64,000 bases of DNA from contig CAVOXA010000015.1 of assembly GCA_963700285.1 (NCBI GenBank), positions 1-64,000 on the forward strand. The letters are read 5' to 3'. Below, one piece after another: positions 38,389-59,731 of this stretch. The stretch is from an uncultured Chloroflexia bacterium. Lineage in GTDB: Bacteria; Chloroflexota; Anaerolineae; JAAYZQ01. Every line of letters begins with the position of its first letter. Positions within the stretch are counted from its first letter, which is position 1. The position numbers and the translations under genes are program-made. The notes under the pieces were generated by a model. That model was not told the origin of the DNA, ran no database searches, and worked only from the letters and a program-made list of their open reading frames with translations.

Positions 38389-38507
38389 AGGGTCGATACC
38401 CTCTTTATCATGTACCACACTCATACCACTGACGGTAGAGTCACTGGCCGCAATAGGCCGCGCCCTGAGTGACCACAACTGAACCCGACTTCTACGGCTG
38501 AAAATGA
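38389..38507 (-). repeat. 119-bp yjbQ-derived module, copy 1
   Basis: Colinear and ungapped with 47720-47838 and 49411-49529. Confidence 0.9.
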
Positions 38508-38761
38508 TTCCTTCGTATGTTCTCGTCTCAGCCAGAGCAGTGCGCTACAAGCGATCGCATTCCTTGGTCCCGCAACGGCGTTCTCGCCTCTCACCCAGCG
38601 CCACAGCAAGCGGAGGACAATGAAGACGGCGACGACCATGGGCACCACAAAGCCCGGATAGGCCAGGCGGGAAACAAAACCGCGCTACGCTCCGGCCGGA
38701 GAAAGGCGATCACGCTGGTGGCAATGGTATGGCCCATTCATGGCTTTTATTTGATATTAAC

Positions 38762-38790
38762 TTGACAAATAGTCTACAATCAAGTATAAT
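38762..38790 (+). promoter_or_regulatory. consensus sigma70 promoter of the radical SAM gene
   Basis: TTGACA-17 bp-TATAAT, perfect consensus. Confidence 0.8.
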
Positions 38791-38917
38791 GGTGCATAGA
38801 TGGAATCCACCGGCTTTGAGACGAGAGCAAAAACATCGCAGGTGAGTTGTCCACTAGGAGTCGACGGCGATCATGGTCGCCACTGTGTGAGATTCCGCTG
38901 GAAAGCAAGGAACGCGT

Positions 38918-40352
38918 ATGAGAGTGATGCTCATTCAGCCGCCCATGTATCATCTAAAGATGCAGCTATCCCCGAACCTGGGGCTCGCCTACATTGCGGC
39001 GGTTCTGGAGCGCGACGGCTTTGAAGTCCAGGTCCTCGATGCTGCGGCTGAGAACCTGGACTTTGACGGCGTCATTGAGCGCATACGAGCGTTTTCCCCT
39101 TCTGTCATTGGGGCTGGCGGGCAGACGCCGGTCAGCCGGCGCTCGATGACCATCTTTGCGCGTGCAAAGGAGGAGATCAGCCAGGATATCATCACAGTCG
39201 CAGGAGGACCGCATTTCTCGTTTGCGGATAGGGAATCGCTGGCAGAGTGCCCGCAGCTGGATGTGATCGTGCGGGGCGAAGGCGAGGAGACCATGAGCCG
39301 CCTCTGCAAGAGGGTTGCGGCTGGCGAGCCCTTGGATGATCTACGCGGGATCACCTGGCGCAACGACGCAGGGAGAGGCGGTGCGCAACCCCGATCGCCC
39401 GCCTATCGCAGATATCGATTCCATCCCTTTTCCGGCTTGGCACTTGTTTCCGGTGGACAAATACCACTGGGTGGGCAACAGACTTCTGGCAACATCGTCA
39501 TCGCGTGGATGCCCGTATCATTGCCCCTATTGCATCACCTGGAAAATGCACCGCGGTGTAAGACAAAGAGACCCTGCCAGAATCGTGGAGGAGATGGTGT
39601 GGGCCAAGAAGCACTTTGGCCACGACACCTTTTTCTTTCAAGATGACGCTTCGTTTCTTGTGCGTGAGCAGCTCGAGGGGTTCCTGGATGAGCTCGAAAA
39701 GTGCGGAGAGAAGCTGTACTGGTATTACGAAACGCGTGAGGATGTCTTTCTGCGCTTCCGAGATCTCTGGGAGCGAATGAAAAGGAATGGGCTTTTCAAG
39801 ATTGTGTTCGGGCTGGAGTCGCCTGACCCCGAGCAGCGAGAGCGCTTTGGCAAGCGGGGGTATGATCTCAGCTCTGTCGAGTCCATGATGCGTACGTTGG
39901 AGAAGGAACTCGACATCATGGTGTCGGTGTATCTCATCTTCGGTGTGCCTGAAGACACCGAGGAGTCACTGGACTCCATTCTGGAGTATGCCAGGCATCT
40001 GTACCCGGACTACTGCTCGTTTGTTGTGGGCTCTTTGGCCGTTCCTTTCCCCGGAACCGACAAGTTCATTGAGCTGAAGGAAAAAGACCTGATCAGCAGC
40101 TACAATTGGGATGACTACGGCTTTGGCAAATCGGTGATACGGTCTTCAATACCTCCTGAAAAGCTGCAAGACGTATTCAGTGGATTCTGGATCGGCACCT
40201 ATGTGCGGCCAAAGGCGGTAATGAAACAGGTACAACTACTCCTCTCTCGAAACCGGTTCAGAAGAGCAATGGCCAAGCAGTACATCGCCATGGCAGCCGA
40301 AATGATCTCCGATGTCCAGAAGATGAAAGGGGAGAAGCGAGACGGATTCTAG
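38918..40352 (+). CDS. cobalamin-binding radical SAM protein (frameshift near 39375)
   Basis: N-terminal B12 domain (PNLGLAYIAAVL, VAGGPH, VRGEGEET) plus SSRGCPYHCPYC and FGLES. Confidence 0.9.
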
Positions 40353-40475
40353 GCGGGGAGAACGGGGATAGAAACTCGGAACGTCCGGGAACTGCTCAAG
40401 GCGTGCTCGACCGAACTGGACGCGGGCCATGTGACCGGCTAGGAGGTCGAGGCTGAATGCCTGGGCCAGACCCGT

Positions 40476-42134: not shown

Positions 42135-42216
42135 TGAGGTTGGCCCCAAAAACTGGACCACGTGCTAAGGTGAAGGAACTTGGTGTATAATGTGCACAGC
42201 ACGTGGAGGTTCAAAC

Positions 42217-42507
42217 ATGTCCAAGAAACGTCGCCGGTTCAGCGCTGAATTCAAGTTCAAGGTTGCGCTGGAAGCAGCCAAAGGCACGAAGACGCTGAAC
42301 GAACTGTCGAGTGAATACGGGGTCCATCCCAACCAGATCAGCGGCTGGAAGCGCGAGTTGTTGGAAGGAGGTGCCACGCTCTTCTCCAGCAACAGCGCCC
42401 AGCAGGTGCGAGAGCAAGAAGCGCTGCAAACAGAGCTCTATGAGCAGATCGGGCGCTTGAAGATGGAGCTGGAGTGGCTGAAAAAAAAAGCTGCCCGCTA
42501 CGATTGA
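42217..42507 (+). CDS. IS3 OrfA (HTH)
   Basis: RRRFSAEFKFKVALEA..G.KTLNELSSEYGVHPNQISGWK, LYEQIGRLKMELEWLKKK. Confidence 0.92.
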   Translation: MSKKRRRFSAEFKFKVALEAAKGTKTLNELSSEYGVHPNQISGWKRELLEGGATLFSSNSAQQVREQEALQTELYEQIGRLKMELEWLKKKAARYD

Positions 42508-42520
42508 GGCCAAGCGCGGC

Positions 42521-43325
42521 ATGATCGAACGAGGCCATCCAGAACTCAGTGTGCGGCGCCAGTGTGAACTCATCGGCGTGAACCGCTCTTCACTGTACTA
42601 CCAGCCGGTGGGCGAATCGGCGTACAACCTGCAGTTGATGCGGCTGCTCGACGAGCAGTATACGCGGACACCGTTCTATGGCTGGCCGCGAATGACGGCC
42701 TGGCTGCGCCAAGAAGGGCACAAGATCAACCCCAAGCGTGTGCGTAGATTGATGGCTTTGATGGGTTTGCAGGCAATTCATCCGAAACGCAGAACCAGCA
42801 TCCCGGCTCCGGGTCACAAACGGTACCCGTACTTGCTGCGCGGTCTCAAGATCACGCATCCTTGTCAGGTCTGGAGCACAGACATCACGTACGTGCCGAT
42901 GCGGGGCGGTTTCATGTTCCTGGTGGCCGTCATCGATTGGTTCAGCCGATATGTCTTGGCCTGGCAACTGTCGAACACGCTGGATGGTCTCTTCTGTCGG
43001 GTCGCGCTCCGGCAAGCATTGGAGCAAGGTATAGCCGGACATCTTCAACACCGACCAAGGAGCCCAGTTCACGGCGGAGGAGTTCACCAGCATCCTGGAA
43101 GCAGCCACCGTCCGGATCAGCATGGATGGCCAAGGCCGAGCCCTGGACAACGTATTCGTCGAGCGCTTGTGGCGCACCGTCAAGTACGAGAATATCTATC
43201 TCGTGGACTATGCTTCTGTCCCGGACCTGGAAATGGGATTGCATGCCTACTTCCGTTTCTACAACCATGAACGTCTGCACCAGAGCCTGGACTATCAGAC
43301 GCCGGCAGAGGTGCACCGTGCCTGA
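42521..43325 (+). CDS. IS3 OrfB DDE transposase (frameshift near 43030)
   Basis: WSTDITYVP, VIDWFSRYVLAW, IFNTDQGAQFT, DNVFVERLWRTVKYE, YNHERLHQSLDYQTP. Confidence 0.92.
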
Positions 43326-43470
43326 TCAGCTCCTGCCCAGGCCGGCAGGCGTTCACCTTATTTTGGCCGATCCGTGGTCCAAAGAATGGGGCCAACCTCA
43401 CTTTGACTTCATCGCACGACCTCCCCTGCAAACTGTGAAATCGCAATCAAGCCGAAGCTCAAACCGGGTA

Positions 43471-43600
43471 GCCCAACAGACCGCACATCAGCCGCCGCCG
43501 GGCGAAACGACGCACCCGACAAGAACGGATCCGACAGACTACCGACACCGGCAGCAACCAAACCCTCGAGGAGGCGGTCGGCTGCATGCGCTGGTTGGTA
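43471..43600 (-). mobile_element. integron attC site (130 bp)
   Basis: Minus strand: TACCAAC CAGCGCATGCAGCCGACCGCC ... GGCGGCGGCTGATGTGCGGTCT GTTGGGC (GTTRRRY core). Same L-box arms as the attC at 34711. Confidence 0.8.
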
Positions 43601-43679
43601 GAGAACGGATACCCTCAGAACTGAAACCATACCGAGAAACACGACGGAACCTACTGACAGCACACTGCTCGAATGGGCA

Positions 43680-44400
43680 TCAGGCATCTTGCTTGACGAA
43701 TACCAGGTTAGACACCCTGCCTCCAGAATCCGAGAGACGGAAACCGGAAACCGCGTCGTTCGCATCCCGCTCAAATGCCAGCATCATAGGTTTGGCCGCG
43801 GAATGTAGTATGGGTCCTATCCAACCGTCGCAGAAGACATCGGCGATCATGGGCGTCAAGGGACTGCGGCCCTGTCTCTTGCGCTGTACAACAAGGTTGT
43901 CGCCATCTGAGCGTTATTGTCCAATAGACATCCAACTCAGGACTGTAGTAGCGTCCGGTGTATGCTCGCAGTGAATCGGGCGTTGGCACCACTGATTCTG
44001 CCCAGGCGTAGCGCGTACGGCCTGTATCGGTGTCGACCAGCACTTGTGCCGGCCCAGTTGCGGTTGCGGGACTAAAGCTCGCGCTGGCCTCTGGGAAAGC
44101 AGCGAAGATGAAGTTGTGCCTGCTCACCGGCGCCAGATCGTAGCCCAAAATCTGCAGTGTGCCATCGTTGAATTCAATGTCTATGAATGCCGACGTATCC
44201 GCATTGTAATAACGGCCCGCTTTCGCGGATAGTTGCGCTTCTTCCAGTTCGATCGTTTCGGGAATGGCGGCGGCTGGGGCATCTGGTTGTGCGTCGCCCA
44301 GATAAAGGTCCGCAACCTGCTGTGCCAGTTGTCGCGCCTTGAGCGCGCCATGATTGCCCAAAATGGCGACGCTGAAATGCTCCCCTACCCCCGCCTGCCC
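43680..44400 (-). pseudogene. C-terminal fragment of a beta-lactamase-family serine hydrolase
   Basis: HFSVAILGN..LAQQVADLYL, AYTGRYYSPELDV, FERD....VSGFRL..GRVSNLVF. The catalytic N-terminus is absent. Confidence 0.6.
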
Positions 44401-44465
44401 GGCGGCTCGGTGACTGTGGCCTTGTGTGCCATACTCCATGGCGGCCAGGATCGCTCTGAGTGCCA

Positions 44466-44504
44466 CTACTCCCCAATAATCTTGACCAACACCCGTTTCC
44501 GTCG
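44466..44504 (-). pseudogene. yjbQ: yjbQ 3'-end stub
   Basis: Encodes [12 protein letters not shown]-stop, identical to the last 12 residues of intact YjbQ. Confidence 0.85.
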
Positions 44505-44566
44505 CTAGCATCCAGGATTACAAAGGCGCCAAGCCAACCCTGCTCAAACTGACGGATATAGATCGG

Positions 44567-45982
44567 CTATCGCAGATGCCGCATGGCAGCTCGGGCTGCA
44601 TGGGTCCCGCACATGCCGTGCACCCCGCCCCCAGGCGGTGTGGAAGACGAGCAGAGATAGAGACCCCGGACAGGCGTAGTATAGGGATTCACGCGGACGA
44701 CAGGCCGGGTGAAGAACTGGCGCAGATCCTGTACTCCTGCGTTGATGTCGCCGCCGACATAGTTGGGATTGTACGCCTCCATCTGGCTGGCGTCCATGGT
44801 GCTCAGGGCCAGGATCCGGTCCCGAAAGCCGGGAGCAAAGCGTTCGATCTGCGCCTCCACGCGACCGGTCATGTCCTCCGTCGAGCTGTGGGGGACGTGA
44901 CAGTATGCCCAGGCCGTATGCTTGCCTTCTGGCGCGCGGGTAGCATCAAAAAGGCTCTGCTGGGCCAGGATGACGTAGGGTCGTTCCGGGTGCTCCCCCT
45001 GCCAGACGGCGGCCTCGCTCTCGGTTATCTCCTCCAGGGTGCCGCCCAGGTGCACGGTGCCGGCCCGCAAGCACTCCTCTGCCCGCCACGGAATCGGTCC
45101 GTCCAGGGCATAGTCGAGCTTGAACACGCCGGGCCCGTAGCGAAAGCGCAACAGGGCATCCCGGTACCCCGCCGGCAGACGGTCGCCCGAGATCCCGACT
45201 AGCGCGCGCGGCGAGGTGTCAAAGAGAGTCGCCCGAGCCTGGGGCAGGTCGTGGGTGGAGTGCACTGGACTGCCGGTGTGGAATTCCCCGCCCAGCGATT
45301 CCAGATGGGCGCCAAGGGCGTCGGCGATCCGCTGCGATCCGCCGCGCGCTATCGGCCAGCCGATGGCATGTGACAGCATGCCGAGGATCAGGCCAATCGC
45401 CGCCGTGGCGGGCGACGTCAGGGGGAGCATGGCATGGGCAGCCATGCCCGCAAACACGGCTCGGGCACGCTCGCCGCGAAAGACCGCTCGTGCCAGGGTG
45501 GCGGCAGGCAAAAGCGCGGTCAGCCCAAAACGGGCCATCAGCAGGGCATGCGATGGGAAGCGAAGCGGGCCGAGGACGTCGTCCAAAAGCCCCTGCCAGC
45601 CGTCGACCAGCGGCTCCATGAGCCGCCGGTAGGCGCCTGCATCCGGGCCGAGATTGGCCGCGGTCTGCTCGACGGTGCCTTCGACCATCACGGCGGTGCC
45701 GTCGTCCAGGGGATGCGCCAGCGAGGCAGGAGGGTAGACCCACTCCAGACCGTGCTGCGCGAGGGGTAGGTCCCGAAAGAAGGGCGAGGCTACGCCCAGC
45801 GGATGCAGGGCCGAGCAGACGTCGTGCATGAAGCCCGGAATGGTCAGTTGGGCCGTGCGGGTGCCCCCGCCGATGGTGGGCTTGGCCTCCAGGACGAGGA
45901 CCGACTTGCCGCCCCGAGCCAGCGTGATGCCAGCAGCCAGGCCATTGGGGCCGGAGCCCACTATCACGGCGTCGTAGGTCAT
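44567..45982 (-). CDS. phytoene dehydrogenase-like NAD(P)/FAD-dependent oxidoreductase
   Basis: DAVIVGSGPNGLAA, HDVCSALHPL, AWAYCHVP, SSTPPGGGVHGMCG. Confidence 0.9.
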   Translation of the reverse strand: MTYDAVIVGSGPNGLAAGITLARGGKSVLVLEAKPTIGGGTRTAQLTIPGFMHDVCSALHPLGVASPFFRDLPLAQHGLEWVYPPASLAHPLDDGTAVMVEGTVEQTAANLGPDAGAYRRLMEPLVDGWQGLLDDVLGPLRFPSHALLMARFGLTALLPAATLARAVFRGERARAVFAGMAAHAMLPLTSPATAAIGLILGMLSHAIGWPIARGGSQRIADALGAHLESLGGEFHTGSPVHSTHDLPQARATLFDTSPRALVGISGDRLPAGYRDALLRFRYGPGVFKLDYALDGPIPWRAEECLRAGTVHLGGTLEEITESEAAVWQGEHPERPYVILAQQSLFDATRAPEGKHTAWAYCHVPHSSTEDMTGRVEAQIERFAPGFRDRILALSTMDASQMEAYNPNYVGGDINAGVQDLRQFFTRPVVRVNPYTTPVRGLYLCSSSTPPGGGVHGMCGTHAARAAMRHLR

Positions 45983-46716
45983 CGTGCGAACAGGCCGCGG
46001 ACCCAGCGGATGGGCAGGTACAATGTGGTACGCATCGCGGCGTTGTACCAGAGGTTGGTTGCCCTGGCCCAATATATCGTCGGATCCAGTAGGACTGCGT
46101 CCTGGTGCATCGCCTCGCCCTCGGCGCCAAAGTGGGCGGCCAAGTTGGTCAGCGTGCCTTGCCAGAACTGGTCTTCCGCCTCAACGGCGAATCCAAGCCG
46201 CTGCCCCAGTTCGTACAGCGGATCGCCGGAGCGCAGCATCGCCTGGACCTGCGCCACGGTGACGCCGTCCTCCTCGTAGGCGCTGAAGGTGATCATGCCG
46301 CCGAACATGTGGCCTTCCACGCTCAGGAAGCAGAACGACTCCTCGTCGGCATAGGCCACAAAGATGCCGGTGGCAATGGTCGTGCCCACCGGGCCCGCGA
46401 GATTCAGCACGCCAACGTCGCCGAGCTCGATCGGCCTGTCTGCGCCGTAGAAGGTGCTGCCCGGAGGCCAGAAGCCGGCGAATCGCTCTTTCCATACCCG
46501 ACAAACCTGAGCGGGGGTCGCCGCTGAGCCAGTCAGGCCGATCTGGTAGGTCCTCAGCCACAGCGGGCCAAAGCCCTTCATCGGGCCCATAGGGCGCCTG
46601 CCCTGAACGTTCAGGTTGATCGCCTCTTTGGGCAGGTCCGGTACACTCAGCCGCTCGACCGGTGTGGCCCACTGTCCCTGCGGTCCCGTCTTGAGCTCTG
46701 TCTGTTTTTCAGTCAT
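45979..46716 (-). CDS. conserved hypothetical protein (SRPBCC/DUF1990-like)
   Basis: INLNVQGRR..GP..GFG.LW, WKERF..FWP, EGHMFGGMITFSA, DPLYELG. ATGA overlap with the next gene. Confidence 0.7.
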   Translation of the reverse strand: MTEKQTELKTGPQGQWATPVERLSVPDLPKEAINLNVQGRRPMGPMKGFGPLWLRTYQIGLTGSAATPAQVCRVWKERFAGFWPPGSTFYGADRPIELGDVGVLNLAGPVGTTIATGIFVAYADEESFCFLSVEGHMFGGMITFSAYEEDGVTVAQVQAMLRSGDPLYELGQRLGFAVEAEDQFWQGTLTNLAAHFGAEGEAMHQDAVLLDPTIYWARATNLWYNAAMRTTLYLPIRWVRGLFAR

Positions 46717-46776
46717 GCGCGCCTCCTTGATGGTCACAATGCCGCGGGTCGCGGTGAATGGTGCAGAACCCTGGCA

Positions 46777-47127
46777 TCACAGGCTCTGCAACGCCTCGGC
46801 CTCGCCGGCGTAGACCTCCAACGCCTCATCAAGATAGGTCACCAGGAAGGCCTGCTGCAACGGGACGCCAAGTCCGCACGCCACCAGGCGCTGCTTCTGG
46901 TGTTGGGCACGCGCCAGCAGCGCGATCAGCAGCCCAAGGCCAGAGCTGTCCATAGCCTCCACTTCACCAAAGTTGAGGATGACGGTCTCCGCACCGCCGC
47001 TACTAGCTTCCTGGTACGCAGCCGTCAGCGGCTCTTCGGCAGTGCGGGTGATGGGACCCCGGAGATCAAGGATGTGAACCCGGTCGGCCGGTTCGCGGAC
47101 TGCTACTTCGAGCTTGGCTTGTACCAT
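46777..47127 (-). CDS. STAS-domain anti-sigma factor antagonist
   Basis: VILNFGEVEAMDSSGLGLLI phospho-Ser motif. RBS GGAGG. Confidence 0.9.
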   Translation of the reverse strand: MVQAKLEVAVREPADRVHILDLRGPITRTAEEPLTAAYQEASSGGAETVILNFGEVEAMDSSGLGLLIALLARAQHQKQRLVACGLGVPLQQAFLVTYLDEALEVYAGEAEALQSL

Positions 47128-47417: not shown

Positions 47418-47722
47418 TTATTCACCTATGATCTTGACCAACACCCGCTTCCGCCGCCGCCCGTCAAACTCGCCGTAGAAGATGCGCTCCCAGGTGCCAA
47501 AGTCGAGGCGGCCGTTGGTCACCGCCACCACCACCTCACGGCCCATCACCTGCCGCTTCAGGTGCGCGTCTGCATTGTCCTCGCCGGTGCGGTTGTGCCA
47601 GTACTGGCTCGATCGGCGCGTGCGGTGCCAGCTCTTCGAGCCACACCTCGTAATCGTGGTGCAGGCCACTCTCGTCGTCGTTGATGAACACACTCGCAGT
47701 AATGTGCATCGCCGATACAAGG
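47418..47722 (-). pseudogene. yjbQ: yjbQ pseudogene (3' two-thirds, frameshifted)
   Basis: [29 protein letters not shown] / [58 protein letters not shown]. Confidence 0.92.
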
Positions 47723-47838
47723 GTCAATACCCTCTTTATCATATACCACTCTCATGCCCCTGACGGCAGAGGCCATGGCGGCCATAGGCCGCGCCCTGAG
47801 CAACCGCACTTAGGCCCTAATTCTACGATCGGAAATGA
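47720..47838 (-). repeat. 119-bp yjbQ-derived module, copy 2
   Basis: 79 of the first 86 bp are identical to copy 3 (manual count). Confidence 0.9.
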
Positions 47839-47945
47839 ATCTTGCCATCGCTCTGCTCGCTGATAATGGGCTCCAGAATCGAGCAGGTAGCAAGGCACAG
47901 AGAGTGTGTGACTCAGATTTTCGCTGCCTGCGCTGGTATTACCCG

Positions 47946-49166: not shown

Positions 49167-49289
49167 CGCATGGCTTCCCTGGATATGAGACTGAAAACCT
49201 CTTCAGGCATAAGCGAACAGCCGAGCCTCGGTCTTCAGTATGTGGACTTGCGCACTTAATAGATGTCTATGCGTCGCGCGTGTCCCCAT

Positions 49290-49413
49290 GGCGATACGGG
49301 CGCGCCGGCTCGCGGAGGCCAGCGATTCGAGCCAGGCGTCGTGATCCCGGTGAACATCGCTGCCATCACCTCTTGTGAGAATGCAGGATATGACACGGAT
49401 GGCGCTCACCAGG
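49290..49413 (-). pseudogene. yjbQ: heavily decayed internal yjbQ fragment
   Basis: LVSAIRVISCILTRGDGSDVHRDHDAWLESLA aligns without gaps to [32 protein letters not shown]. Confidence 0.65.
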
Positions 49414-49529
49414 GTCAGTTCCCTCTTTATCATATACCACTCTCGTACCCCTGACGGCCGAGGCCATTGCTGCCATAGGCCGCGCCCTGAGCAACCAAAA
49501 CTGAACCCAGCTTTTACGACTACTTATGG
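49411..49529 (-). repeat. 119-bp yjbQ-derived module, copy 3
   Basis: Colinear with copies 1 and 2. Confidence 0.9.
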
Positions 49530-49698
49530 TACTTCTAGCTCCCTTCGGATGGATCAAGATCACGAAATGAACTGGTAAATGTAAGGGCGGTTAATGCCTA
49601 TGGTTGACAATACCTTGTATAGGATACCCTTATGCGTTTTACCCAGTTTGACTCTGAAAGAGAATAGAATGATTCCGGGGCGAGAAGTGGCTTTGTGG

Positions 49699-50451
49699 TT
49701 ATTGATTCTGCATGATGAAATCCAGCATGATTTCGGCAACCTTTTCATGCTGCTCGGCTAAGCTTATTGAGGCAACAACATCACCTTTCTGGGGACCATA
49801 ATCGCCAAATTGAGCATGGCTGGCACCTTCAATGCCAACAAATACAGTGTTTGCTGGTAACAGGTGTCTCTTGTCATTCAAGTTGTCGGTGTTCGGAGAA
49901 TCATTCGTGGTACCGAAAATGGAAAGTGCAGATATGGCGTTATCTGACAAGTCAGCACTGTCGGGTGGATAAGAATCCCAGAATGCGATTGCATCTATCC
50001 TGGTTGGGTTATTCTCCGCAAATATGGCTGCTGAGGCGCCCCCCAGAGAATGCCCAGCAAGGATCCAGGTAGAAATGTCCGGATACTCGTCAATCACGGC
50101 ATTAGCAGCACCTGTATCCAATATTGCCAAGTTCAATGGCATGGGGGTGATAACGACGAGTACCCCTTCTTCTGCGATTCTACGCAGAATAGGTGCGTAG
50201 GCGGTTGGTTCTACCAAGCCGCCTGGGTAGAAGATCAATCCGGTTTCCGTCTCCTCCCCGGGTGTAAATACGATCCATTTGTCTTGTGTAATTGTTACCC
50301 TGTCCGTTGATTCAAGTGCGGACAATGCAACAGTTCTGGCAGGGTATGTTCCTGTTTTTGCCCAAACCAGCATCCCCAAGACACCAATAATGACTATCGA
50401 AACGAGACCAATGAATGCAAACCGTATGATTCTTTTTGCCTTCATACTCAA
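49699..50451 (-). CDS. membrane-anchored alpha/beta hydrolase
   Basis: N-terminal TM helix, GLIFYPGG.V...AY, AGHSLGG, IEGASHAQFGDYGPQ.GD. Low GC. Confidence 0.9.
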   Translation of the reverse strand: MSMKAKRIIRFAFIGLVSIVIIGVLGMLVWAKTGTYPARTVALSALESTDRVTITQDKWIVFTPGEETETGLIFYPGGLVEPTAYAPILRRIAEEGVLVVITPMPLNLAILDTGAANAVIDEYPDISTWILAGHSLGGASAAIFAENNPTRIDAIAFWDSYPPDSADLSDNAISALSIFGTTNDSPNTDNLNDKRHLLPANTVFVGIEGASHAQFGDYGPQKGDVVASISLAEQHEKVAEIMLDFIMQNQ

Positions 50452-50661
50452 TCCTTAGTAATTCCGCAAAGGAAGTTTGCTATCGAGTAAACGGTTTCAG
50501 GAAGGGGGCAATTCTCCAGACCTACAAACAGAATATGGCTTTTCTCTTAGCAAGTCACCAATATCCCAATGAAAATTCGTTTGGATAATAGAGGTACCTT
50601 TCCACAGTCTCTTCTATTGCATTTCTGCCAACACCTACGCTAAAGATAGCTCTGAGCGCAC

Positions 50662-51081
50662 CTATTCGCCGATGATCTTGACCAACACCCGCTTCCGCCG
50701 CCGGCCGTCGAACTCCCCGTAAAAGATCTGCTCCCACGTGCCAAAGTCTAGCCGCCCGTTGGTCACCGCCACCACCACCTCGCGCCCCATCACCTGCCGC
50801 TTCAGGTGCGCGTCGGCATTGTCCTCGCCGGTGCGGTTGTGCTGGTACTGGCTGACCGGCGCGTGCGGCGCGAGCCCCTCCAGCCACTTTTCGTAATCGG
50901 CGTGGAGGCCGCGCTCGTCGTCGTTGATAAAGACCGACGCCGTGATATGCATCGCATTCACCAGGACCAGCCCTTCCTGAACGCCACTTTCCCGCAGGCA
51001 CTCTTCCACCTGTGGTGTGATGTTGATAAAGGCACGTCTACTGGGAACTTGGAACCATAACTCTTTTCGATAGCTCTTCAT
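50662..51081 (-). CDS. yjbQ: YjbQ (UPF0047, secondary thiamine-phosphate synthase family), intact
   Basis: [52 protein letters not shown]. Confidence 0.95.
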
Positions 51082-51147
51082 GAACCCTCCTTCTGAAATA
51101 AGTCGCTAGGGGGACTTGTCCAACTCAACAGGAGCCAATGCCTCTCC

Positions 51148-52794
51148 CTATGCCTCGTACACCCACCGCCCACCGACCATCGTACGCTCGATCGGAATGT
51201 GCACCAGAGATCCAGGGTCCGCGGTCCTTGGATCTGCCCCGAGCACGACCAGGTCCGCCAGCTTTCCAGGTTCCAGGGAGCCCTTCAGCCCTTCTTCGAA
51301 GGAGGCGTAGGCACCATGCAGGGTGCTGACCCGGATCACTTCCTCGACCGTGATCCGCTGGCTCGCGCCCCAGACCTGACCGGTGGTGTCGGTACGCGTC
51401 ACAGCCGATTGTAGCGCCATCATCGGCTCGAAGGGGCCTGGCGGATAGTCCGAGCCCGGAGCAATCATGACCCCCGCGTCCAGCAGGCTGCGCAGGGCGA
51501 ACATGGACTCCAGGCGCTCGGCGCCGTACTCGGACATCTTTTCGCCGTGATAGTAGATGTACGCCCCAAAGGGGGTAGGCACGGCATTCAAGGCCTTGAT
51601 CCGGCGGATAAGCGCGTCGTTGAGCACCGTACAGTGTTCCAGGCGGAAGCGAGGGTCGGTGCGCGGGTATTCGCGCTGCAACCGCTCGTAGATGCGCAGC
51701 ACCATGTCGATGGCCACGTCGCCGTTGGCGTGGACGCCGATCTGCCAGCCGGCCCGGTGAGCCTGGACCGCGTAGCCGTATAGCTCCTCCTCGCCCATGA
51801 CCAGGATGCCATAGTCGTCCGGCCTCCCGGCGTAGGGCTCCGACAGGAGGGCGGTGCGCTCCGAAATCGACCCGTCGCACACGAGCTTCAGCCCGCCCAG
51901 GCGCACCCACGGATCGCCGAAACCGGTACGCAGGCCGGCCTCGAGCATCTTGTGCCAGCGCGAATAGTGGATCATGCAATACACGCGCAGGGACAGCTCG
52001 CCAGCCAGGTGGGCGTCCTGGTAGGCACGCAGATCCTCCGGACTTGCCCACATGTCGTGGGCCGAAGTGATGCCGGCCCGGCTCATCATGCCTGTGATCA
52101 GCTTGGCGGCCGCCTGACCGACGGATCTGGAATAGCTGGTGGGGATGGCTGCCATGAAGGGGTCCATGGCCGTCTCGCACACTCGGCCTGTCAGACGGCC
52201 GCTTCCAGGCTCGCGCTCCAGCCTGCCCCCCGCCGGATCATCGGTTGACTCGACAATGCCAACCCGTTCCAGGGCAAGAGAGTTGACATAGGCCGTATGG
52301 CCACCCCGGTGCAGGACGAGCACGGGATGTCGCGGCGCGGCCGCATCCAGATCGTCGCGCGTGAGAAAGCGGCGCTCGGCCGTCTTGCCATCGTCGTATT
52401 TGAAGCCCTGCACCCACTCGCCTTGTGGGGTGTGTTCCGCCCGGCTGCGCAAGGCCCTCTGTATCTCGGCTACAGAGGGGAGGGCGCAGTCCACACAGCG
52501 CAGGTGCATCAGGCCGGCATAATTCAGGTGGCAGTGCGCGTCGACAAAGCCAGGGACGACCGTCCGGCCACCCAGATCGAGCTGCCGCGTGCCGACAGCG
52601 GCCAGGGCCCGGACGCTGGCGTCGTCGCCAACGGCCCAGATCCGGTCGTCCAGCACGGCCAGGGCCCGGGCGCGCGGCTGCGCGGGGTTGACGGTCAGAA
52701 TGTCCGCGTTGTACAGGATCAGTTGTGGCCCCCGCAGCGACAGCGATGGGCCTGCCGGGCCCACAAGCCTCTGGCGTGGCTCAGCCTGTGCCAT
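51148..52794 (-). CDS. amidohydrolase 3 family (YtcJ-like)
   Basis: PGFVDAHCH, LK...DGS, HANGD.AI, RLEHC, GSDYP, KGSLEPGKLADLVVL. Confidence 0.92.
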   Translation of the reverse strand: MAQAEPRQRLVGPAGPSLSLRGPQLILYNADILTVNPAQPRARALAVLDDRIWAVGDDASVRALAAVGTRQLDLGGRTVVPGFVDAHCHLNYAGLMHLRCVDCALPSVAEIQRALRSRAEHTPQGEWVQGFKYDDGKTAERRFLTRDDLDAAAPRHPVLVLHRGGHTAYVNSLALERVGIVESTDDPAGGRLEREPGSGRLTGRVCETAMDPFMAAIPTSYSRSVGQAAAKLITGMMSRAGITSAHDMWASPEDLRAYQDAHLAGELSLRVYCMIHYSRWHKMLEAGLRTGFGDPWVRLGGLKLVCDGSISERTALLSEPYAGRPDDYGILVMGEEELYGYAVQAHRAGWQIGVHANGDVAIDMVLRIYERLQREYPRTDPRFRLEHCTVLNDALIRRIKALNAVPTPFGAYIYYHGEKMSEYGAERLESMFALRSLLDAGVMIAPGSDYPPGPFEPMMALQSAVTRTDTTGQVWGASQRITVEEVIRVSTLHGAYASFEEGLKGSLEPGKLADLVVLGADPRTADPGSLVHIPIERTMVGGRWVYEA

Positions 52795-52842
52795 ACTCAC
52801 CTCCTGCAGCAAAAGGTCGGGACCTTGGGCCCGTCAGGATCG

Positions 52843-54220
52843 CTACTCCGGAACAGGCAGGATCAGGCCCCTGTCCATCAAAAAGTGGGTCATGTCCTGA
52901 GCCTGCCGGATCATCTGCTCTGCCCTGCCCAGCAACTCGCCCCGGGAGAGCTTCAGGCGCGCAACGCCTTGCTCCTGCGCCTTCACGTCCGACGGCCGCC
53001 GCCTGCCGGGCAAAGACTGCCCGGTCCTCAATGGTCGGGATGATATGCTCCGCATCGAGTCCCTTTTCCTGCTGGTAGCAGGCCAGCTCCTCGGCGGCCG
53101 CGATGGCCATCTCGTCGGTGATGGTCCGCGCCCGCACGTCCAGCACGCCCCGGAAGACGCCGGGAAAGACCAGCGAGTTGTTGATCTGGTTGGCAAAGTC
53201 GCCCCGGCTCGTGCCCACCACGCGCGCCCCGGCCTCCTTTGCCTCCCAGGGCCAGATCTCGGGGATAGGATTGGCCAGCGCAAAGACGACGGCATCCTCG
53301 GCCATGGCCGCGACCCATTCCGGCCTGAGGGCGCCGGGACCCGGCCTGCTGGCGGCAATGCACACGTCGGCGCCGCGTATGGTCTCGGCCATGCCGCCCC
53401 TCCGGCCCTCCGCGTTGCTCTGCAGGCAGATCTGCCACTTGCCCGCGAATTCTTCCTGACGTTGTTCGATGTCCTGGCGTTCCGGGTGCAGGATGCCCTG
53501 GCTGTCGCAGACCACAATGTCGCCGTAGCGTACCCCGCTAGCGAGCAACAGGGGGATGAGGGGCACGTTGACCGCCCCGGCGCCGATCAGCGCGACCCGG
53601 ATCTCGTCAAAGCGCTTGCCAACCACGCGCAGGGCGTTGATCAGCCCGGCCAGGATGACCGTCGCCGTTCCCTGCTGGTCATCGTGCCACACCGGGATGC
53701 GAAAGTCGGGATCGGCGCGCAGCGCGTCCAGGACCCGGAAGCACTTGGGCTGGGAGATGTCCTCCAGGTTGACCCCGCCAAAGGAGGGCTGGAGCCATTT
53801 GGTGGCCTGCACGATCTGGTCCGGGTCCTTGGTGTCCAGGCAGATGGGAACCGCGTCCACCCCGCCCAGGTACTTGAACAGCAGCGCCTTGCCCTCCATC
53901 AGCGGCAGCCCGGCTCCCCCGAGGATCTCCGGCTCGGTGAACCCCACCTGGAGGCCCTGCACCCGGGTGCTGTCGGAGACTACGGCCACCGTGTTGCCCT
54001 TGTTGGTATACTCGTAGGCCAGGTCCTCGTTTTCCTGGATGGCCCGGCAGGGCGCGGCCACGCCAGGCGTGTACCACACCGCAAAGTCGTCCACGACGTC
54101 GTGAATGGGGCACTTGGGCGCCATCTGCACCTTGCCCCGGTACAGCGGATGGAGGCGCATGGCGTCTTCACCCGGTTTCCTGGCCTTGGCCAGCAGTTGT
54201 TCCTCGGACATCACAGCCAT
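52843..54220 (-). CDS. NAD(P)-dependent malic-enzyme family protein, variant (frameshift near 52988)
   Basis: WYTPGVA, MEGKALLFK, NLEDI, HDDQQGT, GAGA, FALANP.PEI, NQINNSLVFPG. Confidence 0.9.
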
Positions 54221-54366
54221 CCGGCTACGGCTCCTCTCCACGATTCCACAGGTACCCTGGGTTTCCAGGTCGCGCCGCAGGTCCGCCCGCGCCCAGCTAC
54301 AACCTTGCGATGGTAGCCGGCGGGTTGGCCTGGTTCTCTTCTGGGGCGATGAGGGCGCCCGCGTGC

Positions 54367-55668
54367 TCAGCCCGACGGCAGACTTTGGTCCGCGATCTCC
54401 AACACCTCGTCGATGATGCTCAGGCCATCACGCAGCTCGGTCTCGCTGATGCATAGCGGCGGCGCGACAAAGATCAGGTTGGCCGGGAAGAAGGTGGACA
54501 GCCCCCGCTCGCGGCACAGCTTGGCCAGGGGAGCCGTGGGCATTGGTTCCTTGGTCTCCCGATCCACCACCAGCTCGATGGCCGCGAACAGTCCGATATA
54601 CCGCACGTCCCCCACCGAGGGGTGCCGGGCCTTGAGCTCCTCGAGTTGCTCACCCAAGACCACCCCCAGCCGGGCCGCGTTCTCGATCAGCCCGTCGTCG
54701 TGGTAGACCTGCAAAGTGGCAACCCCCGCCGCGCAGCTCAAGGGGTGCGCGCTGTAGGTCAGGCCGCAGTAGAGCATCCTGTCCTCAAAGTACTGGGCCA
54801 TGGGCTCTGAGACGATGACGGCGGCCAGCGGCACATACCCCGCTGTCAGACCCTTGGCCGTGGTGATCATATCGGGCACCACGTCCCAGTGGTCCACCGC
54901 GAACCAGGTGCCCGTCCGGCCAAAGCCGCTCATCACCTCATCGGCGACGAGGAGGATGCCATACTTGTCGCACAGCGCGCGCATGCGCGGCCAGTAGTCA
55001 TCTGGCGGAACCAGGATCCCGTTCGTGCCGGTCACCCCTTCCAAAAAGATGGCCGCCACGTTGTCCGGACCCTCAAACTTGATGACATCTTCGATGTGGG
55101 TGACGCACTCCCGGTGGCACGTGTCCGGCGTCCACCCAAACGGACAGCGATAGCAATAGGGGTCAAAGACGTGGATCACGCCGGGGATGGTGGGTTCGGC
55201 CGCCCAGCGCCGGTGGTCGCCGGTCAGGGCGATGGCGCCATGGGTCGCGCCATGGTAGGACCGGTAGCGGGCCAGGATCTTGCGCCGGCCGCTGTACATC
55301 CGGGCCAGCTTGATGGCGTTCTCGTTGGCCTCCGCGCCGCCCAAACAGAAGAACGACTTTTGCAGGTTTCCCGGCGCGACCTCGGCCAGCATCTGCCCGA
55401 GCCGCGCCCTGGGTTCGGTCACGGCGCTGGGCTGGGCAAAACAGAGTACGTCCGCCTGGTCCTTGATGGCCTGCACCACCTTGGGGTGCTGGTGCCCGAT
55501 GTTCAGGTTTATCAGTTGGGACGAAAAGTCGATGTAGCGCTTGCCATTGGAATCCCAATAATAGACCCCTTCACCCCGGACCATAGGGATGGGATCGACC
55601 GTGGATTGAACGGACCAGGAGAACAGCGTATAGTCCCGGCTCAACCCGATAATCTCAGCAGCGTCCAT
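54367..55668 (-). CDS. class III (omega-amino acid) aminotransferase
   Basis: YIDFSSQL, GGAEANE, SYHGAT, ADEVMSGFGRTG, TTAKGLT (PLP Lys), GLTYSAHP. Confidence 0.92.
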   Translation of the reverse strand: MDAAEIIGLSRDYTLFSWSVQSTVDPIPMVRGEGVYYWDSNGKRYIDFSSQLINLNIGHQHPKVVQAIKDQADVLCFAQPSAVTEPRARLGQMLAEVAPGNLQKSFFCLGGAEANENAIKLARMYSGRRKILARYRSYHGATHGAIALTGDHRRWAAEPTIPGVIHVFDPYCYRCPFGWTPDTCHRECVTHIEDVIKFEGPDNVAAIFLEGVTGTNGILVPPDDYWPRMRALCDKYGILLVADEVMSGFGRTGTWFAVDHWDVVPDMITTAKGLTAGYVPLAAVIVSEPMAQYFEDRMLYCGLTYSAHPLSCAAGVATLQVYHDDGLIENAARLGVVLGEQLEELKARHPSVGDVRYIGLFAAIELVVDRETKEPMPTAPLAKLCRERGLSTFFPANLIFVAPPLCISETELRDGLSIIDEVLEIADQSLPSG

Positions 55669-55788
55669 GGTTTCGGCTCCTTTTGGAGAAAAGATATGCC
55701 TGGACGGGAACCCGCCAGCTCCCATCCAGGTTCCAGCCTACATCAGATCTCACTGCCCGGCCAGGATCCGGGCCCGCCAGGCCAGCCC

Positions 55789-57154
55789 TCAGGCAAACTT
55801 GAGGCCGTAGCCAGCCAGCTCTCCTTTGACCCTACCGTAGAGGTCGACGTATTCCTGGCAGGGCTCGATGGAACCCCAGTCGTGGCTCTCTTGGAAGGGC
55901 GTGCCCTTGGGTGGATCGAGCAGCCGGTCCTCGTACTTGGGCAGCAGCTTTCCGACAATCTCGTTGGCCTCCACCCGGCTCAGGCCAGCGGCAGCATGGG
56001 CCACCTCAGAGGCGAAACGAGGCTCCACCGGGCTGAGGTGATCGACGTTTCTGGCGGCGCCCACCCCGCCAAACTCGATGTTGCCCCCGGACACGACGCC
56101 GGTGATCATGCCGGTGGCGATCTCGTAAAAGTTCATCTCCGTCATCGGGCCCGCCGCACAGTAAGTATACCACAAATGCGGCATGTGATTGTTGCGGCTG
56201 ATAGCCTGTGTGGCCAGGCTCTGCGTCCACAAAAGCTGCTGGTTGCTGTTCCAGCCGCGCAGGTGCAAGGGGAAAGTGAGGTGGACGGATGCTCTCAGAA
56301 CCAGGATGGAGTAGAGCAGGTAGGCCGTGCTGACCACGGCCACCCCCTCCGGCCCTCCGGCAAAGCCGCCCAGAATCGGCCCGCATTCCCCAATGAGCTG
56401 GCCGCCACGGGCAAGAATGTAGGCGACCTCGTTCAGCCGCTGGAACGACACCTTGAACTCGGCCGCAAAACCGACGACCCAGCAGTCGGAATCCCGCAAC
56501 CCAAACTCGCTGCCCGTGATCTTGCCCGCATCGGTGACCGCCGTCGAGATGGAGTTCATGATCGGCAGGCCGGGCCGCTGGGCGCGGCGAAGCGCAGCGC
56601 GTCCAAGCTCGACGGCCCGGATGCAAGCCAGCAGTTCCAGGGGCGACCCTGCGCGCGTGGACATGCCATTGATGGTCGCCAGGTTCGGGCACGTGACCGA
56701 GTTCGGCCAGCGGATTGCGGCCGTAGCCCTCTACCAGGCGCACGTACACATCTTCGGTGCTGCACGTCGCCCCGCCTGCTCCCAAAAAGCACCAGGGTTC
56801 GACGCTGCTCTCTGGTTTCCGGCCCAGCATCGCCTTGCGGTCCCGCCCCTCCCCGAACACCGGCGCCCTGGGCGCGTCCCGCAGTCCCTCCAGCAGTTCC
56901 TCTTTGGTGAAGCGTATGACCCGGCTCGTGTCCGTGCAGTAGCAACCCGTTTCCGCGCACAGCTCCAGCGCCGCCTGGAACAGGTCGTCGGCGAGCTGGT
57001 CGTCGTTTGGCACGGAAGTCCCGGGGTCGAAGCGGATGCCATACTTTTTGACCACCTGCCGCAGCTTGGGGACCACGACCTTCATGTCAAAGTCCCGCTC
57101 CGAGTAATAGGGACCGTTCAACGCCCGCCTGATCACCTCAAAGAAGTCTATCAT
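55789..57154 (-). CDS. mtmB: monomethylamine:corrinoid methyltransferase (MtmB) family, non-pyrrolysine, paralog 2 (one extra base near 56705)
   Basis: Colinear with the upstream paralog. LADDLFQAALEL...G.YC.DT.R.I.F, GSPLE, RPGLPIM, GG.AGGPEG, PPKG..F.E. One extra G restores the frame. Confidence 0.85.
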
Positions 57155-57164
57155 CTCTCCTCCT

Positions 57165-58532
57165 CTACTTGAACCTCAGGCCATAGCCGGCGAGTTCGTC
57201 CTTGATCTGTCCATAAAGGTCCAGGTATTCCTGGCGCGGCTCGATGGAGTCCCAGTCATAGCATTCGGGAAACTTCCTGCCTTTGGGCGGGCTGGGCAGC
57301 CTGTCCCGGTATTTGGGCACCAGCTTCTTGACCATTTCATTCGCCTCGGCGCGGCTCAGGCCTGCTGTGGCGTGGGCGACCTCCGAGGCGAACCTGGGCT
57401 CCAGGGGGGTGAAGGTATCGAGGCTGATCGCCTTGGCCACGCCGCCAAACTCGATGTGGCCACCAGAGGCCACCCGCCCTATCTGGGTGGCAGCGATCTC
57501 GTAGAAGCACATGTCGGTCATCGGTCCCGCGGCCAGGTAAGTGAGGTTCAGCATCGGCAGGTGGCTGTTGCGGCAGATGGCCTGCGTGCTGACATTGATG
57601 GGCCACATGATCTCCCAACTGGTGTTGCAGCCATATCGAAAGTCCATGGGAAAGGTCAGGTGCGCGGAAGCCCGGAGCACCAGGATCACCAGCAGGTGAT
57701 AGGCCACGTTGCTCACCGCCACACCCTCGGGACCGCCCGCATAGCCGCCCATGATCTCACCGGTCTCACCAACGATCTGCCCTCCCCGGGCAGTGACGTA
57801 GGCGACCTCGTTCAGCCGCTCGAAGGGTACCTGGAGCGGGGAGGTGAAACCGATGACCCAGCCATCGCTGTCCCGCAGGCCAAACGCGCTCCCCGTGATC
57901 TTGCCGGCCGCGGTGACCGCCGTGGCGATGGAGTTCATAATCGGCAAGCCGGGCCGCTGTGCCCGCCGCAACGCGGCTCGGCCCAGCTCGACGGAGCGGA
58001 TGCAGGCCAGCATCTCCAGGGGTGAGCCGGCCACCACCTCCATGCCGTTGATCATGGTCAGCGTGGGACAGGTCACCGAATTGATCAGCGGGTTGCGCCC
58101 ATAGCCTTCAACCAGGCGGACGTACACCTCCTCGCTGGATGAGATGCCACCGCCCGCCCCCAGAAAGCAGTAGGGGGGATCGGCGCTCTCCGGCCTTCGG
58201 GCCGGCATGGCTTTCCTGTCACGTCCCTCTCCGAACACCGGGCTGGCAGGTGCGTCCCTCAAAGCCTCGCGGAGCTCTTCTTTTGTGAAGCGAATGATGC
58301 GGGAAGTGTCCTTACAGTAGCAGCCGACTTCCGCGCACAGCTCCAGGCCGGCCTCCCACACGGCATCCGCCAGGTCATCGTCGCCGGGCACCGGCGTTTC
58401 GGGATCGTAGCGGATGTTGTACTTTTTGATCAGCTCCCTCAGTTTGGGCACCAGGATCTTGATGGCAAAGTCCTGCTCAGTGGAGTAGGGACCGTCCAGC
58501 GCGCGCCTGATGATCTCAAAAAAGTCGATCAT
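57165..58532 (-). CDS. mtmB: monomethylamine:corrinoid methyltransferase (MtmB) family, non-pyrrolysine, paralog 1
   Basis: 455 aa. DLADAVWEAGLEL..EVG.YC.DTSRII.FT.EE, AGSPLE, RPG, GGYAGGPEG, AGPMTDMCFYE, LE.RF, PPKG.KF.ECYD. No in-frame TAG. Confidence 0.88.
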   Translation of the reverse strand: MIDFFEIIRRALDGPYSTEQDFAIKILVPKLRELIKKYNIRYDPETPVPGDDDLADAVWEAGLELCAEVGCYCKDTSRIIRFTKEELREALRDAPASPVFGEGRDRKAMPARRPESADPPYCFLGAGGGISSSEEVYVRLVEGYGRNPLINSVTCPTLTMINGMEVVAGSPLEMLACIRSVELGRAALRRAQRPGLPIMNSIATAVTAAGKITGSAFGLRDSDGWVIGFTSPLQVPFERLNEVAYVTARGGQIVGETGEIMGGYAGGPEGVAVSNVAYHLLVILVLRASAHLTFPMDFRYGCNTSWEIMWPINVSTQAICRNSHLPMLNLTYLAAGPMTDMCFYEIAATQIGRVASGGHIEFGGVAKAISLDTFTPLEPRFASEVAHATAGLSRAEANEMVKKLVPKYRDRLPSPPKGRKFPECYDWDSIEPRQEYLDLYGQIKDELAGYGLRFK

Positions 58533-58547
58533 TTGCTCTCTCCTTTG

Positions 58548-59201
58548 CTAGCGGTCCACGAGTTTGAGGGCCAATGTCACCGCCCCGCTGGCTGTCTCAG
58601 CGTAGCCGTCGGCGCCGATCTTGTCGGCCCATTCCTGGGTTACTGGCGCGCCGCCCACCATGACGGCATACGTTTCTCGCTCGCCCACGTCTCGAAGCAG
58701 GTTGATGACATCCCGCTGTCCAGGCATCGTCGAGGTCATCAGGGCGGATATGGCAATGATGTCAACCTTGCGCTTTCTCGCCTCCTCCAGGAACGTGGTC
58801 GCGGCCACATCCTCGCCCAAGTCGTACACCCTGAAGCCGGCCAGCTTGAACAGCATGGTCAAGATATTCTTCCCGATGGTGTGAATATCGCCCTTGGCCG
58901 TTCCGATGAGGACGGTTCCGGGCACGCCAGCGTCCTGCCCCGCGGCGGCCATCGCCGGCTCCAGCACCTCCATGACCCCGTTGCCGGCCTCGGCAGCCAT
59001 GATCATCTCTGGCAAAAAGACCTCGAGGCGTTCGAATTGCTCGCCGACAATGCGCAGACCATCGCGCAATCCCGTCTCCACGGCCTCCATGGGCGAGATT
59101 CCGGCATCCAGACAGCGCTGAGCCGCCTGCCTGGCGCCCTCCTCGTCGCCCTCAATGACGGCCCGTTGGAGCGCTAGCAGTAGATCACTTTTGTTGGTCA
59201 T
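58548..59201 (-). CDS. cognate corrinoid protein (MtmC/MtbC/MttC-like)
   Basis: N-terminal cap, FLPEMIMAA, GDIHTIGKN (DxHxxG), SALMTST, VMVGGAPVT..WA.KIGADGY. Confidence 0.93.
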   Translation of the reverse strand: MTNKSDLLLALQRAVIEGDEEGARQAAQRCLDAGISPMEAVETGLRDGLRIVGEQFERLEVFLPEMIMAAEAGNGVMEVLEPAMAAAGQDAGVPGTVLIGTAKGDIHTIGKNILTMLFKLAGFRVYDLGEDVAATTFLEEARKRKVDIIAISALMTSTMPGQRDVINLLRDVGERETYAVMVGGAPVTQEWADKIGADGYAETASGAVTLALKLVDR

Positions 59202-59674
59202 TGTGAGATTCTCCTTTCATTGAGTTCCATCTTTATGAATGTCTTCCTGGTACAGCACCCTGGCGTACACCAGGCACGTCTCACAGGCTGGTCATGCTGC
59301 CATTCGCCCGGCGGCATGGACTGCAAGCCCCCGCGCGGCATCAAAAAGCCCAAGGAGGAAACCAAAAGAGGATGTCGAACCGGCGTCTCGCACAGATGGA
59401 CAACTGGCAGGCCCAAGCCCAGAACCCGATAGGCCAAGCCCTTCGGCCACGACCAGCCTATCACGGCAGCCAGATCCAGGGCCGGCAGTCCGTCCGCGTT
59501 TGCGCCCCGACCTGGATTCTAGCACAGCTCCAGGGTCTTGTCAACGAAGCCAAGGCCGCGCTTGCCTGCGACCCGCCGTTCGAACCGCGTGACGATCGTC
59601 TGGTACACCAGCCACCGGCCACCCAGGTAGGCCCCCAAGAGTGCCAGGCCCATCGCGGTCGAGTGGGAGAAGCC

Positions 59675-59731
59675 GATAAAGGCCCGCCGGCCGGGAACCT
59701 GGAACCATAGTTCTTTGCGGTAGCTCTTCAT
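59675..59731 (-). pseudogene. yjbQ: yjbQ 5'-end stub (19 codons)
   Basis: [19 protein letters not shown] with RBS GAGG. 18/19 aa and 47/57 nt identical to the intact gene's start. Confidence 0.9.

Follow-up and report, generated by a model that had tools for sequence, protein, structure and literature searches.

yjbQ pieces and cargo in the window

The window analysed here, a stretch of 64,000 nucleotides on contig 15 of assembly G000 (an uncultured bacterium of the Anaerolineae), carries an intact yjbQ gene and several partial yjbQ copies separated by unrelated cargo genes. The pieces were located by TBLASTN and repeat searches, and the features are collected in Table 1. A preliminary description of the window had counted six co-oriented, sequence-divergent yjbQ pieces with mostly synonymous differences; five of them are real, all on the minus strand, while the copy at 38.4 kb is a short sequence, referred to here as the module, joined to DNA other than yjbQ. 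The divergence is as had been described: the 47.7-kb piece shows 25 synonymous versus 3 other codon differences from its nearest intact allele, and the other near-complete pieces likewise differ from theirs mostly at synonymous positions, as expected of once-functional 3' ends. The attC site reported downstream of the 3' stub is present, a 'serine-hydrolase fragment' at 43771-44511 had no Pfam match and was not confirmed, and the statement that the window holds no recombinase stands for site-specific enzymes but not for the IS3-like transposase and the integron remnant. No tRNA gene occurs in the 64 kb.

The post-stop tail is common to array-linked intact genes and fragments and reaches up to about 330 bp elsewhere. 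Contig C2 of the same assembly represents a second haplotype, 97-98% alike over two blocks, with two more module-yjbQ junctions and different cargo; its 9-kb block difference from the window lies at the tail rather than at the core. Both the breakpoint of the 3' stub and the block of cargo 3 recur in C2 and in L108, a locus from an independent sample. A frameshift near 47607 is missing from the contigs of all four sequencing runs compared and is probably an assembly error. Summed contig depth was 860-2520 in the 47.5-48.0 kb bin holding a yjbQ 3' part and module versus 20-32 in the bin of the yjbQ 5' end, values that do not represent copy number and were not used as evidence.

The exact order in the window rests on the assembly, the whole stretch being spanned by no contig in the four runs, and this, together with 6.5% contamination, the second haplotype and the frameshift-rich sequence, would suit a chimeric assembly of strain variants with one yjbQ apiece. 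Such a chimera is nevertheless highly improbable, as individual short-read contigs of independent samples (L074, L099, L121 and L108) show the same architecture, the copies differ by 10-30%, and several joins of cargo and module recur elsewhere (L086, L110, L117 and L108).

Table 1. Positions of yjbQ pieces, modules, cargo and integron-related features in the 64,000-nt window
Feature	Position	Strand	Remark
yjbQ 5' stub, codons 1-19	59675-59731	-	presumed remainder of an older resident copy
Block separating 5' stub from intact yjbQ	51148-59201	-	
Intact yjbQ (UPF0047)	50662-51081	-	PF01894 match; site of attB/attL type
CT crossover core, bases 1-2 of Leu40 in intact yjbQ	50963-50964	-	
Beginning of conserved post-stop tail	50636-50661	-	
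Cargo 1: alpha/beta hydrolase	49699-50451	-	Pfam
Module copy (P-arm-like)	49408-49537	-	core 49411-49412; attR-type junction
yjbQ 3' piece, strongly decayed	about 49218-49410	-	same allele in L110
Cargo 2: beta-lactamase-family serine hydrolase	47946-49166	-	Pfam
Module copy	47717-47909	-	core 47720-47721; attR-type junction
Displaced yjbQ 3' part, codon 40 through stop	47418-47719	-	
Cargo 3: STAS protein, unknown protein, FAD oxidoreductase	44567-47127	-	
yjbQ 3' stub, last 12 codons	44466-44507	-	followed by about 60 bp of tail
attC	43471-43600	-	bottom strand folds as attC-type hairpin
IS3-like element with terminal inverted repeats	42135-43400	+	beside plsY-like acyltransferase gene
Module copy	38387-38518	-	core 38389-38390
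Sigma70-like promoter across junction, TTGTCC-17 nt-TATCAT	38383-38411	+	consensus match only
Non-yjbQ right arm (P'-like)	38217-38388	-	far end resembles 3' flank of G001 intI
First five codons of deleted integron integrase gene	38202-38216	+	
Integron promoter/attI region	37989-38201	-	attI boxes about 37989-38012
Co-oriented cassette-like genes and remnants behind attI	30886-37984	-	putative cassettes

The module and its junction with codon 40

The module measures up to about 243 bp; its right end is fixed, and the left one is ragged, lying between -90 and -243. Directly after it, yjbQ-like sequence starts at CT, the first two bases of Leu40, and TGACC followed by this CT was found at 46 of the 73 distinct module junctions. 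By rough regular expressions these junctions fell into 51 with yjbQ, 4 with a yjbQ variant, 6 with a non-yjbQ arm, 10 truncated or other cases and 2 contig ends. Six module copies, that at 38.4 kb among them, run into a common non-yjbQ arm, and the 38.4-kb module and arm together form an imperfect inverted repeat of about 58 bp that is centred on CT and resembles an attP site. When 400 centres were ranked, the palindrome at the predicted CT came first in four of seven junctions, second in two and 54th in one; shuffling gave p<=0.0015 in five junctions, and the window's score of 16 was reached by 0.4% of 5000 random CT centres. Most copies show an attR-type junction, the attL type being represented by chimeric intact genes and by L021 (genome G007), in which yjbQ codons 1-39 meet a variant of the P'-like arm at CT. 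One case, L096 (379-863), raised efp as a second target, with this gene cut after codon 155 and joined to an attP-like junction; it was read as a microhomology join and possibly an off-target event. No empty site was obtained from G001, a genome of the same genus that is not syntenic.

Only five module copies are present in the 7.05-Mb assembly, three in the window and two on C2, plus a junction at a C2 contig end. Module DNA matched at E<=0.01 in 9 of 23 genomes of the family and was convincing in G000 and seven others (G004, G006, G007, G008, G012, G013 and G022); in a 401-genome sample of the class, all five matching genomes belong to this family. A pattern scan of a genome collection returned 12 loci, nine with a true module, including one bin labelled Planctomycetota and one labelled deltaproteobacterial (mis-binning possible), and all 44 metagenome loci carried the module (49 copies). 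As the scan pattern fixes part of the module, conservation in that part is partly ascertained. The two other yjbQ subfamilies of the family (16 loci) lack the module, and patterns of module and arm gave no matches in viral, phage and plasmid collections.

Outside the window, complete units of 1.6-4.2 kb have the order intact yjbQ, tail, cargo, module and yjbQ 3' part (L074, L099, L121 and L094), and tandem units occur in L097, L104 and L108, the last with three modules. The preliminary description had proposed to test whether yjbQ fragments delimit variable genes, whether breakpoints recur and whether a recombinase accompanies them. Hydrolases, dehydrogenases, transporters, toxin-antitoxin pairs and ars genes do make up a diverse cargo of complete and tandem units, and the same breakpoints were met across genera; no site-specific recombinase was found in these units (Pfam scans near modules, 200 of 256 open reading frames, E<=1e-9), which hold cargo only. 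Locus L207 (8868-10316, genome G052) shows an intact yjbQ, an inverted AbrB/PIN pair and a yjbQ piece from codon 93 without a module, and a similar AbrB-like gene sits between yjbQ pieces in L128.

Comparison of alleles places the switch at the junction itself. The intact genes that head arrays are more alike in their 3' parts (87-88%) than in their 5' parts (73-82%); lone genes do not show this. That of L074 is 75 and 73% alike to those of L099 and L121 in the 5' part and 88% alike to both in the 3' part. Between the displaced piece of L074 and the intact gene of the same locus the likeness is 68-82% throughout, and the piece groups with other families. The piece on C2 matches the intact allele of the window from the core onward (96, 100 and 100%). 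Five intact genes (L018, L020, L022, L024 and L152) had been entered in the allele tree as fragments, and only named pairs and clades were used. As judged from these alignments, the array-heading intact genes look like chimeras of a host 5' part and an element 3' part.

It could be argued that codon 40 was joined to an integron-flanking segment by one ancient deletion and that RecA has since looped out cargo circles and inserted them again via the yjbQ repeats of about 300 bp, in the manner of unconventional circularizable structures and with no need of a dedicated enzyme. The long direct repeats, the ragged ends on both sides, the position of the 9-kb C2 difference, the lack of a recombinase in complete units and in G000, and insertions common to decayed alleles across genomes, which speak for long inheritance, all agree with this scenario. 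It is still unlikely, because allele switches lie at the core (L021, L074 and C2), the repeats are often just 70-85% alike, and neither the junction-centred palindrome nor the joining of unrelated arms to yjbQ at the same place (G388, G693 and G786) is explained; RecA recombination probably acts secondarily. Homology-anchored capture, one of the two routes put forward in the preliminary description, does not suit as the main one either, given junctions that recur at the same base and intact and displaced copies of L074 that are only 68-82% alike over their entire length; it may account for the 5' stub, whose break at codon 19 is away from the core and which probably stems from an unrelated illegitimate join. 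Identical short insertions at the same codons of decayed yjbQ were seen in L025, L033, L038, L088, L105, L108 and L127, which come from different genomes; this shows wide inheritance or exchange of dead junction alleles.

As a candidate for a fragment of a present-day gene the module was rejected: a hidden Markov model searched over 1.84 billion representatives gave 43 matches of 28-204 aa, 42 of them open reading frame calls on module copies and one a repeat, and a search for longer proteins with P0001 found none. A structured RNA was rejected as well, with no Rfam match, fold z-scores of 0.09 and -1.45 and no covariation (term +0.15; double change at 1 of 15 pairs). Variation in the first 80 bp of the module follows a 3-base period (p 0.006; 21 copies not taken from the pattern scan), and of the six frames the antisense frame showed the most synonymous change (0.43, 4 new stops). 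The integrase of L152, a contig from a viral collection, crosses its site in that same antisense frame, for which the chance basis is one in three per strand. On this codon-like pattern, the first approximately 28 antisense codons of the module may be the tail of a lost integrase that read across attP in the circle only; no full-length protein containing the module's antisense peptide was found.

These results also concern the proposal of an IS110/IS1111-type element whose left end is the module and whose circle junction, as at 38.4 kb, would drive a bridge RNA guiding insertion into yjbQ. A 2-bp core and a promoter formed across the circle junction are hallmarks of IS110 elements, and the CT core, the -35/-10 pair that spans the junction and is directed into the module (by consensus match only) and seven IS110-family matches in G000 are in keeping with them. 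The proposal is improbable, since neither the folds nor the Rfam search indicated a structured guide RNA, the variation of the module is codon-like, its far end adjoins attC sites and not a transposase, no DEDD recombinase lies inside the element, and the IS110 elements of L117 and L126 interrupt the module and hence use it as a target. These related elements (L117:861-2107 and L126:835-2229; 93% protein identity) lie at one and the same base, about 31 bp before the core, in module alleles that differ from each other, and appear to target the module. In L118 (1-1413) a group II intron reverse transcriptase follows shortly downstream of a module-yjbQ junction.

Integron remnants and the proposed mechanism

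An integron remnant adjoins the 38.4-kb module. Positions 37993-38216 are 72% alike to the intI start and attI region of G001, which possesses attI, cassettes and an intI that carries a frameshift close to residue 230 in its assembly, and the attI boxes of the window are also found in L039 and on contig C4 of G000. The intI gene is regarded as deleted in the window because the attI region abuts an arm that runs into sequence resembling the 3' flank of intI. The genes at 30886-37984 encode hydrolase, dehydrogenase, glycolipid-binding, GNAT and TPR proteins, and a heuristic scan without a covariance model found one attC in the window. No intact IntI was found in G000; further attI-like regions and intI scraps of this assembly lie at C4:58402-58627, C4:69633, C6:16563, C6:27218-27379 and C10:1612158.

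In 7 of the 65 copies with enough flank, and in L098 and G001 besides, full-length modules begin exactly at the attC R' crossover, whose box lies at -214 to -245. About seven different attC sequences precede modules, with clean hairpins in L098, L031, L103, L092 and G001, and three module-flanking attC sites fold less cleanly. Locus L039 has the order attI, one gene, module and yjbQ 3' part, and genes in the integron array of G001 have counterparts, 79-84% alike, in the cargo of L094 and L114. The module was absent from the other integron loci retrieved from the family, so most integrons of the family stand outside this system; the attI with a deleted intI, the attC and the modules directly after attC sites in turn make it likely that an integron was part of the ancestral unit. 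It might then be supposed that the integron integrase does everything, the module starting a gene-less cassette and yjbQ offering IntI a non-classical site for the insertion of cassette arrays. IntI, found in 7 of the 23 family genomes, is indeed the sole recombinase tied to the backbone, and the attC crossovers account for the far end of the module, but not for the yjbQ junction, where the crossover lies at a palindrome centre instead of a hairpin base and has no GTT-type box, and no attC closes the yjbQ tail; such a role of IntI is accordingly quite improbable.

The yjbQ pieces are best read as tandem att junctions of cargo units at the CT of codon 40, likely formed in trans by a large serine integrase, a reading considered reasonably probable. 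With its 2-bp core, this Campbell pattern suggests a serine integrase. The preliminary idea of a gene-capture hotspot anchored on yjbQ and served by a trans-acting integrase gains support from the fixed CT crossover, the palindrome centred there and the breakpoints repeated across genera, and so does the origin of the alleles from different donors; the module as an element end, its attP-like copy and the integron platform go beyond that description. The module would be the P arm, its junction with a yjbQ 3' part attR, and the 38.4-kb junction with the non-yjbQ arm an attP, regenerated when a unit was inserted in tandem or into an attR already in place. Each unit likely restores yjbQ with its own last 100 codons and shoves the previous 3' end downstream, and new units may also enter at attR copies. 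The ancestral unit likely had the order P' arm, integrase (lost), intI, attI, cassettes and module (P). In this scheme the integron supplied the cargo, later deletions trimmed both unit ends, and variants exchanged P' for a yjbQ 3' copy, so that integration would leave the gene whole. Units that had lost the integrase and intI and been trimmed would have accreted at attB or attR, and the arrays would have been remodelled by RecA and deletions, in events that include the 3' stub and the 9-kb difference from C2.

Serine integrases do occur at yjbQ elsewhere. In G786 an intact yjbQ is followed after 7.5 kb by the C-terminus of a serine integrase that continues into a displaced 3' piece, and three full-length relatives (P0166-P0168) end in out-of-frame yjbQ sequence. 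In L152 the host yjbQ is split after codon 42, an intact copy is carried by the element itself and the integrase lies antisense across the site. A third arm, with yjbQ pieces starting at nt 118, was found in G388 and G693. The G786 locus (L230:7495-15718) is a yjbQ-bounded island with glycosylation-type genes, whose integrase is truncated by a tyrosine-recombinase fragment, and the loci of G388 (C3:178646-179491, L235) and G693 (C38:145-946, L236) are minimal units of an intact yjbQ, about 130 bp and the nt-118 3' piece behind an arm common to both. A serine recombinase in L112, 1.15 kb from a module, was rejected as a candidate: the same gene and toxin-antitoxin pair occur in G016 without a module, and none of 121 proteins of its family (P0044-P0164) ends in yjbQ sequence. 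No yjbQ was found at 38 further integrase and intI loci.

Several observations weigh against a serine integrase in trans, including the CT core with the promoter-like pair mentioned above, which would suit IS110 elements as well. G000 gave no match to PF07508 and PF00239 and holds no intact serine integrase, only one broken piece; P0167 had no counterpart in 331 genomes of the class at 1e-25, and the L152 integrase gave weak matches only, in 2 of the 23 family genomes. Peptides of module and arm match no integrase tail, and the confirmed yjbQ serine integrases cross about 7 bp downstream of CT and are thus a different family. One of the seven palindromes is weak, no yjbQ 5' part fused to the arm of the 38.4-kb type was seen, and no module closing the 38.4-kb unit is present at 1-38 kb of the window. 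Canonical serine integrases are not known to recombine attP with attR unless a directionality factor is present, and stacking at attR therefore needs a relaxed enzyme. The units are at most non-autonomous derivatives of a serine-integrase element, without an integrase gene of their own.

A two-tier capture system in sediment Anaerolineae is suggested tentatively, in which IntI would load cassettes and an undescribed, relaxed serine integrase would carry entire integron-bearing units, once loaded, from genus to genus and occasionally across phyla. Gene-restoring derivatives devoid of the integrase would then stack at one yjbQ site by attP x attB and attP x attR recombination with the core at codon 40.

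Other features of the window lie beside the array. The block between the 5' stub and the intact yjbQ encodes a corrinoid protein, two MtmB-like proteins, a class III aminotransferase, a malic enzyme and an amidohydrolase. The two tandem MtmB-family genes (55789-58532, together with the corrinoid protein) are 72-77% alike in DNA; one is a complete open reading frame of 455 aa without an in-frame stop, which by its sequence may be a pyrrolysine-free homologue, and the second is frameshifted. A palindromic repeat at about 33590-33760, similar to repetitive extragenic palindromes or miniature inverted-repeat transposable elements, is present at several further sites of the genome, and an element of about 130 bp at about 59950-60110, with more than 20 matches in G001, is probably a miniature element of the latter kind. 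The DNA from 60502 onwards is a possible defence island, with a Phd/PIN toxin-antitoxin pair at 60502-61177 and, from 61307 (L003), a frameshift-rich SNF2 helicase locus followed further on by GIY-YIG and Swt1-like HEPN genes.

Relation to known systems

Searches of the literature on integration sites in yjbQ/UPF0047 and on integrons and serine recombinases of Anaerolineae, in which subscription journals were sparsely covered, turned up no account of the system. The locus offers a scar-tolerant integration hotspot in an uncultured but abundant sediment lineage, with candidates for attB, attP and attR to the base, and it hints at a way in which cassettes of integrons could be mobilised outside Proteobacteria with neither transposons nor plasmids involved. 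An integrase that stacks cargo repeatedly while the target gene is kept intact would, if true, be mechanistically unusual and a useful tool, and the combination of module and yjbQ 3' end can serve as a marker for harvesting recently exchanged genes from metagenomes.

Displaced 3' ends of genes punctuate tandem islands, as in the window, in the accretion of streptococcal cis-mobilizable elements (CIME), in the replacement of the icd 3' end by e14 and phage 21, and in tRNA-fragment arrays, systems that employ tyrosine integrases and longer identity cores. The elements of G786, L152 and P0166-P0168 share with the window the gene, nearly the same site, the retention of an intact copy and an integrase that reads across the att site, for the window the putative lost enzyme; they differ in carrying their integrase, in arms unrelated to those of the window, and in the crossover, which follows codon 42 in L152 and lies at codon 40 in the window.

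As far as the cited account describes them, composite islands of the staphylococcal cassette chromosome (SCC) at orfX/rlmH contain tandem units between att repeats that are moved by Ccr serine recombinases (PMC7029136). These islands and pseudo-SCC elements resemble the window in the protein-coding target, the tandem units separated by att sites and units without a recombinase; SCC inserts at the 3' end with 18-bp repeats, whereas the window shows codon 40 of 139, a replacement of 300 bp, units of 1-7 kb and integron parts. According to the portion of Durrant et al. (PMC10083194) that deals with target sites, diverse large serine recombinases use a single site in a conserved gene with a dinucleotide core, and the window likewise has one coding-gene site and a dinucleotide core. 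Integrons are known in Chloroflexi, and remnants are classed as In0 or as clusters of attC sites lacking integrases (CALIN), in the sections drawn on from PMC4889954; such remnants and mobile integrons have attI, attC, an intI remnant and cassette-like cargo in common with the window, but the platform described here, with one attC found, is embedded in att-bounded units in place of the transposon or plasmid of mobile integrons. In Vibrio cholerae, yjbQ is an island insertion hotspot in three strains and bears a recombinase label in the available parts of the reports (10.1101/2024.07.25.605194; PMC12082036); those islands are defence islands of 22-26 kb, compared with 1-7 kb for the window units. 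The array of the window works like the SCC composite islands without being a member of SCC, its target being yjbQ and not orfX/rlmH, and what is new here is the combination of full-length modules starting after attC and an attI/deleted-intI remnant with tandem accretion of the kind known from SCC and cis-mobilizable elements.

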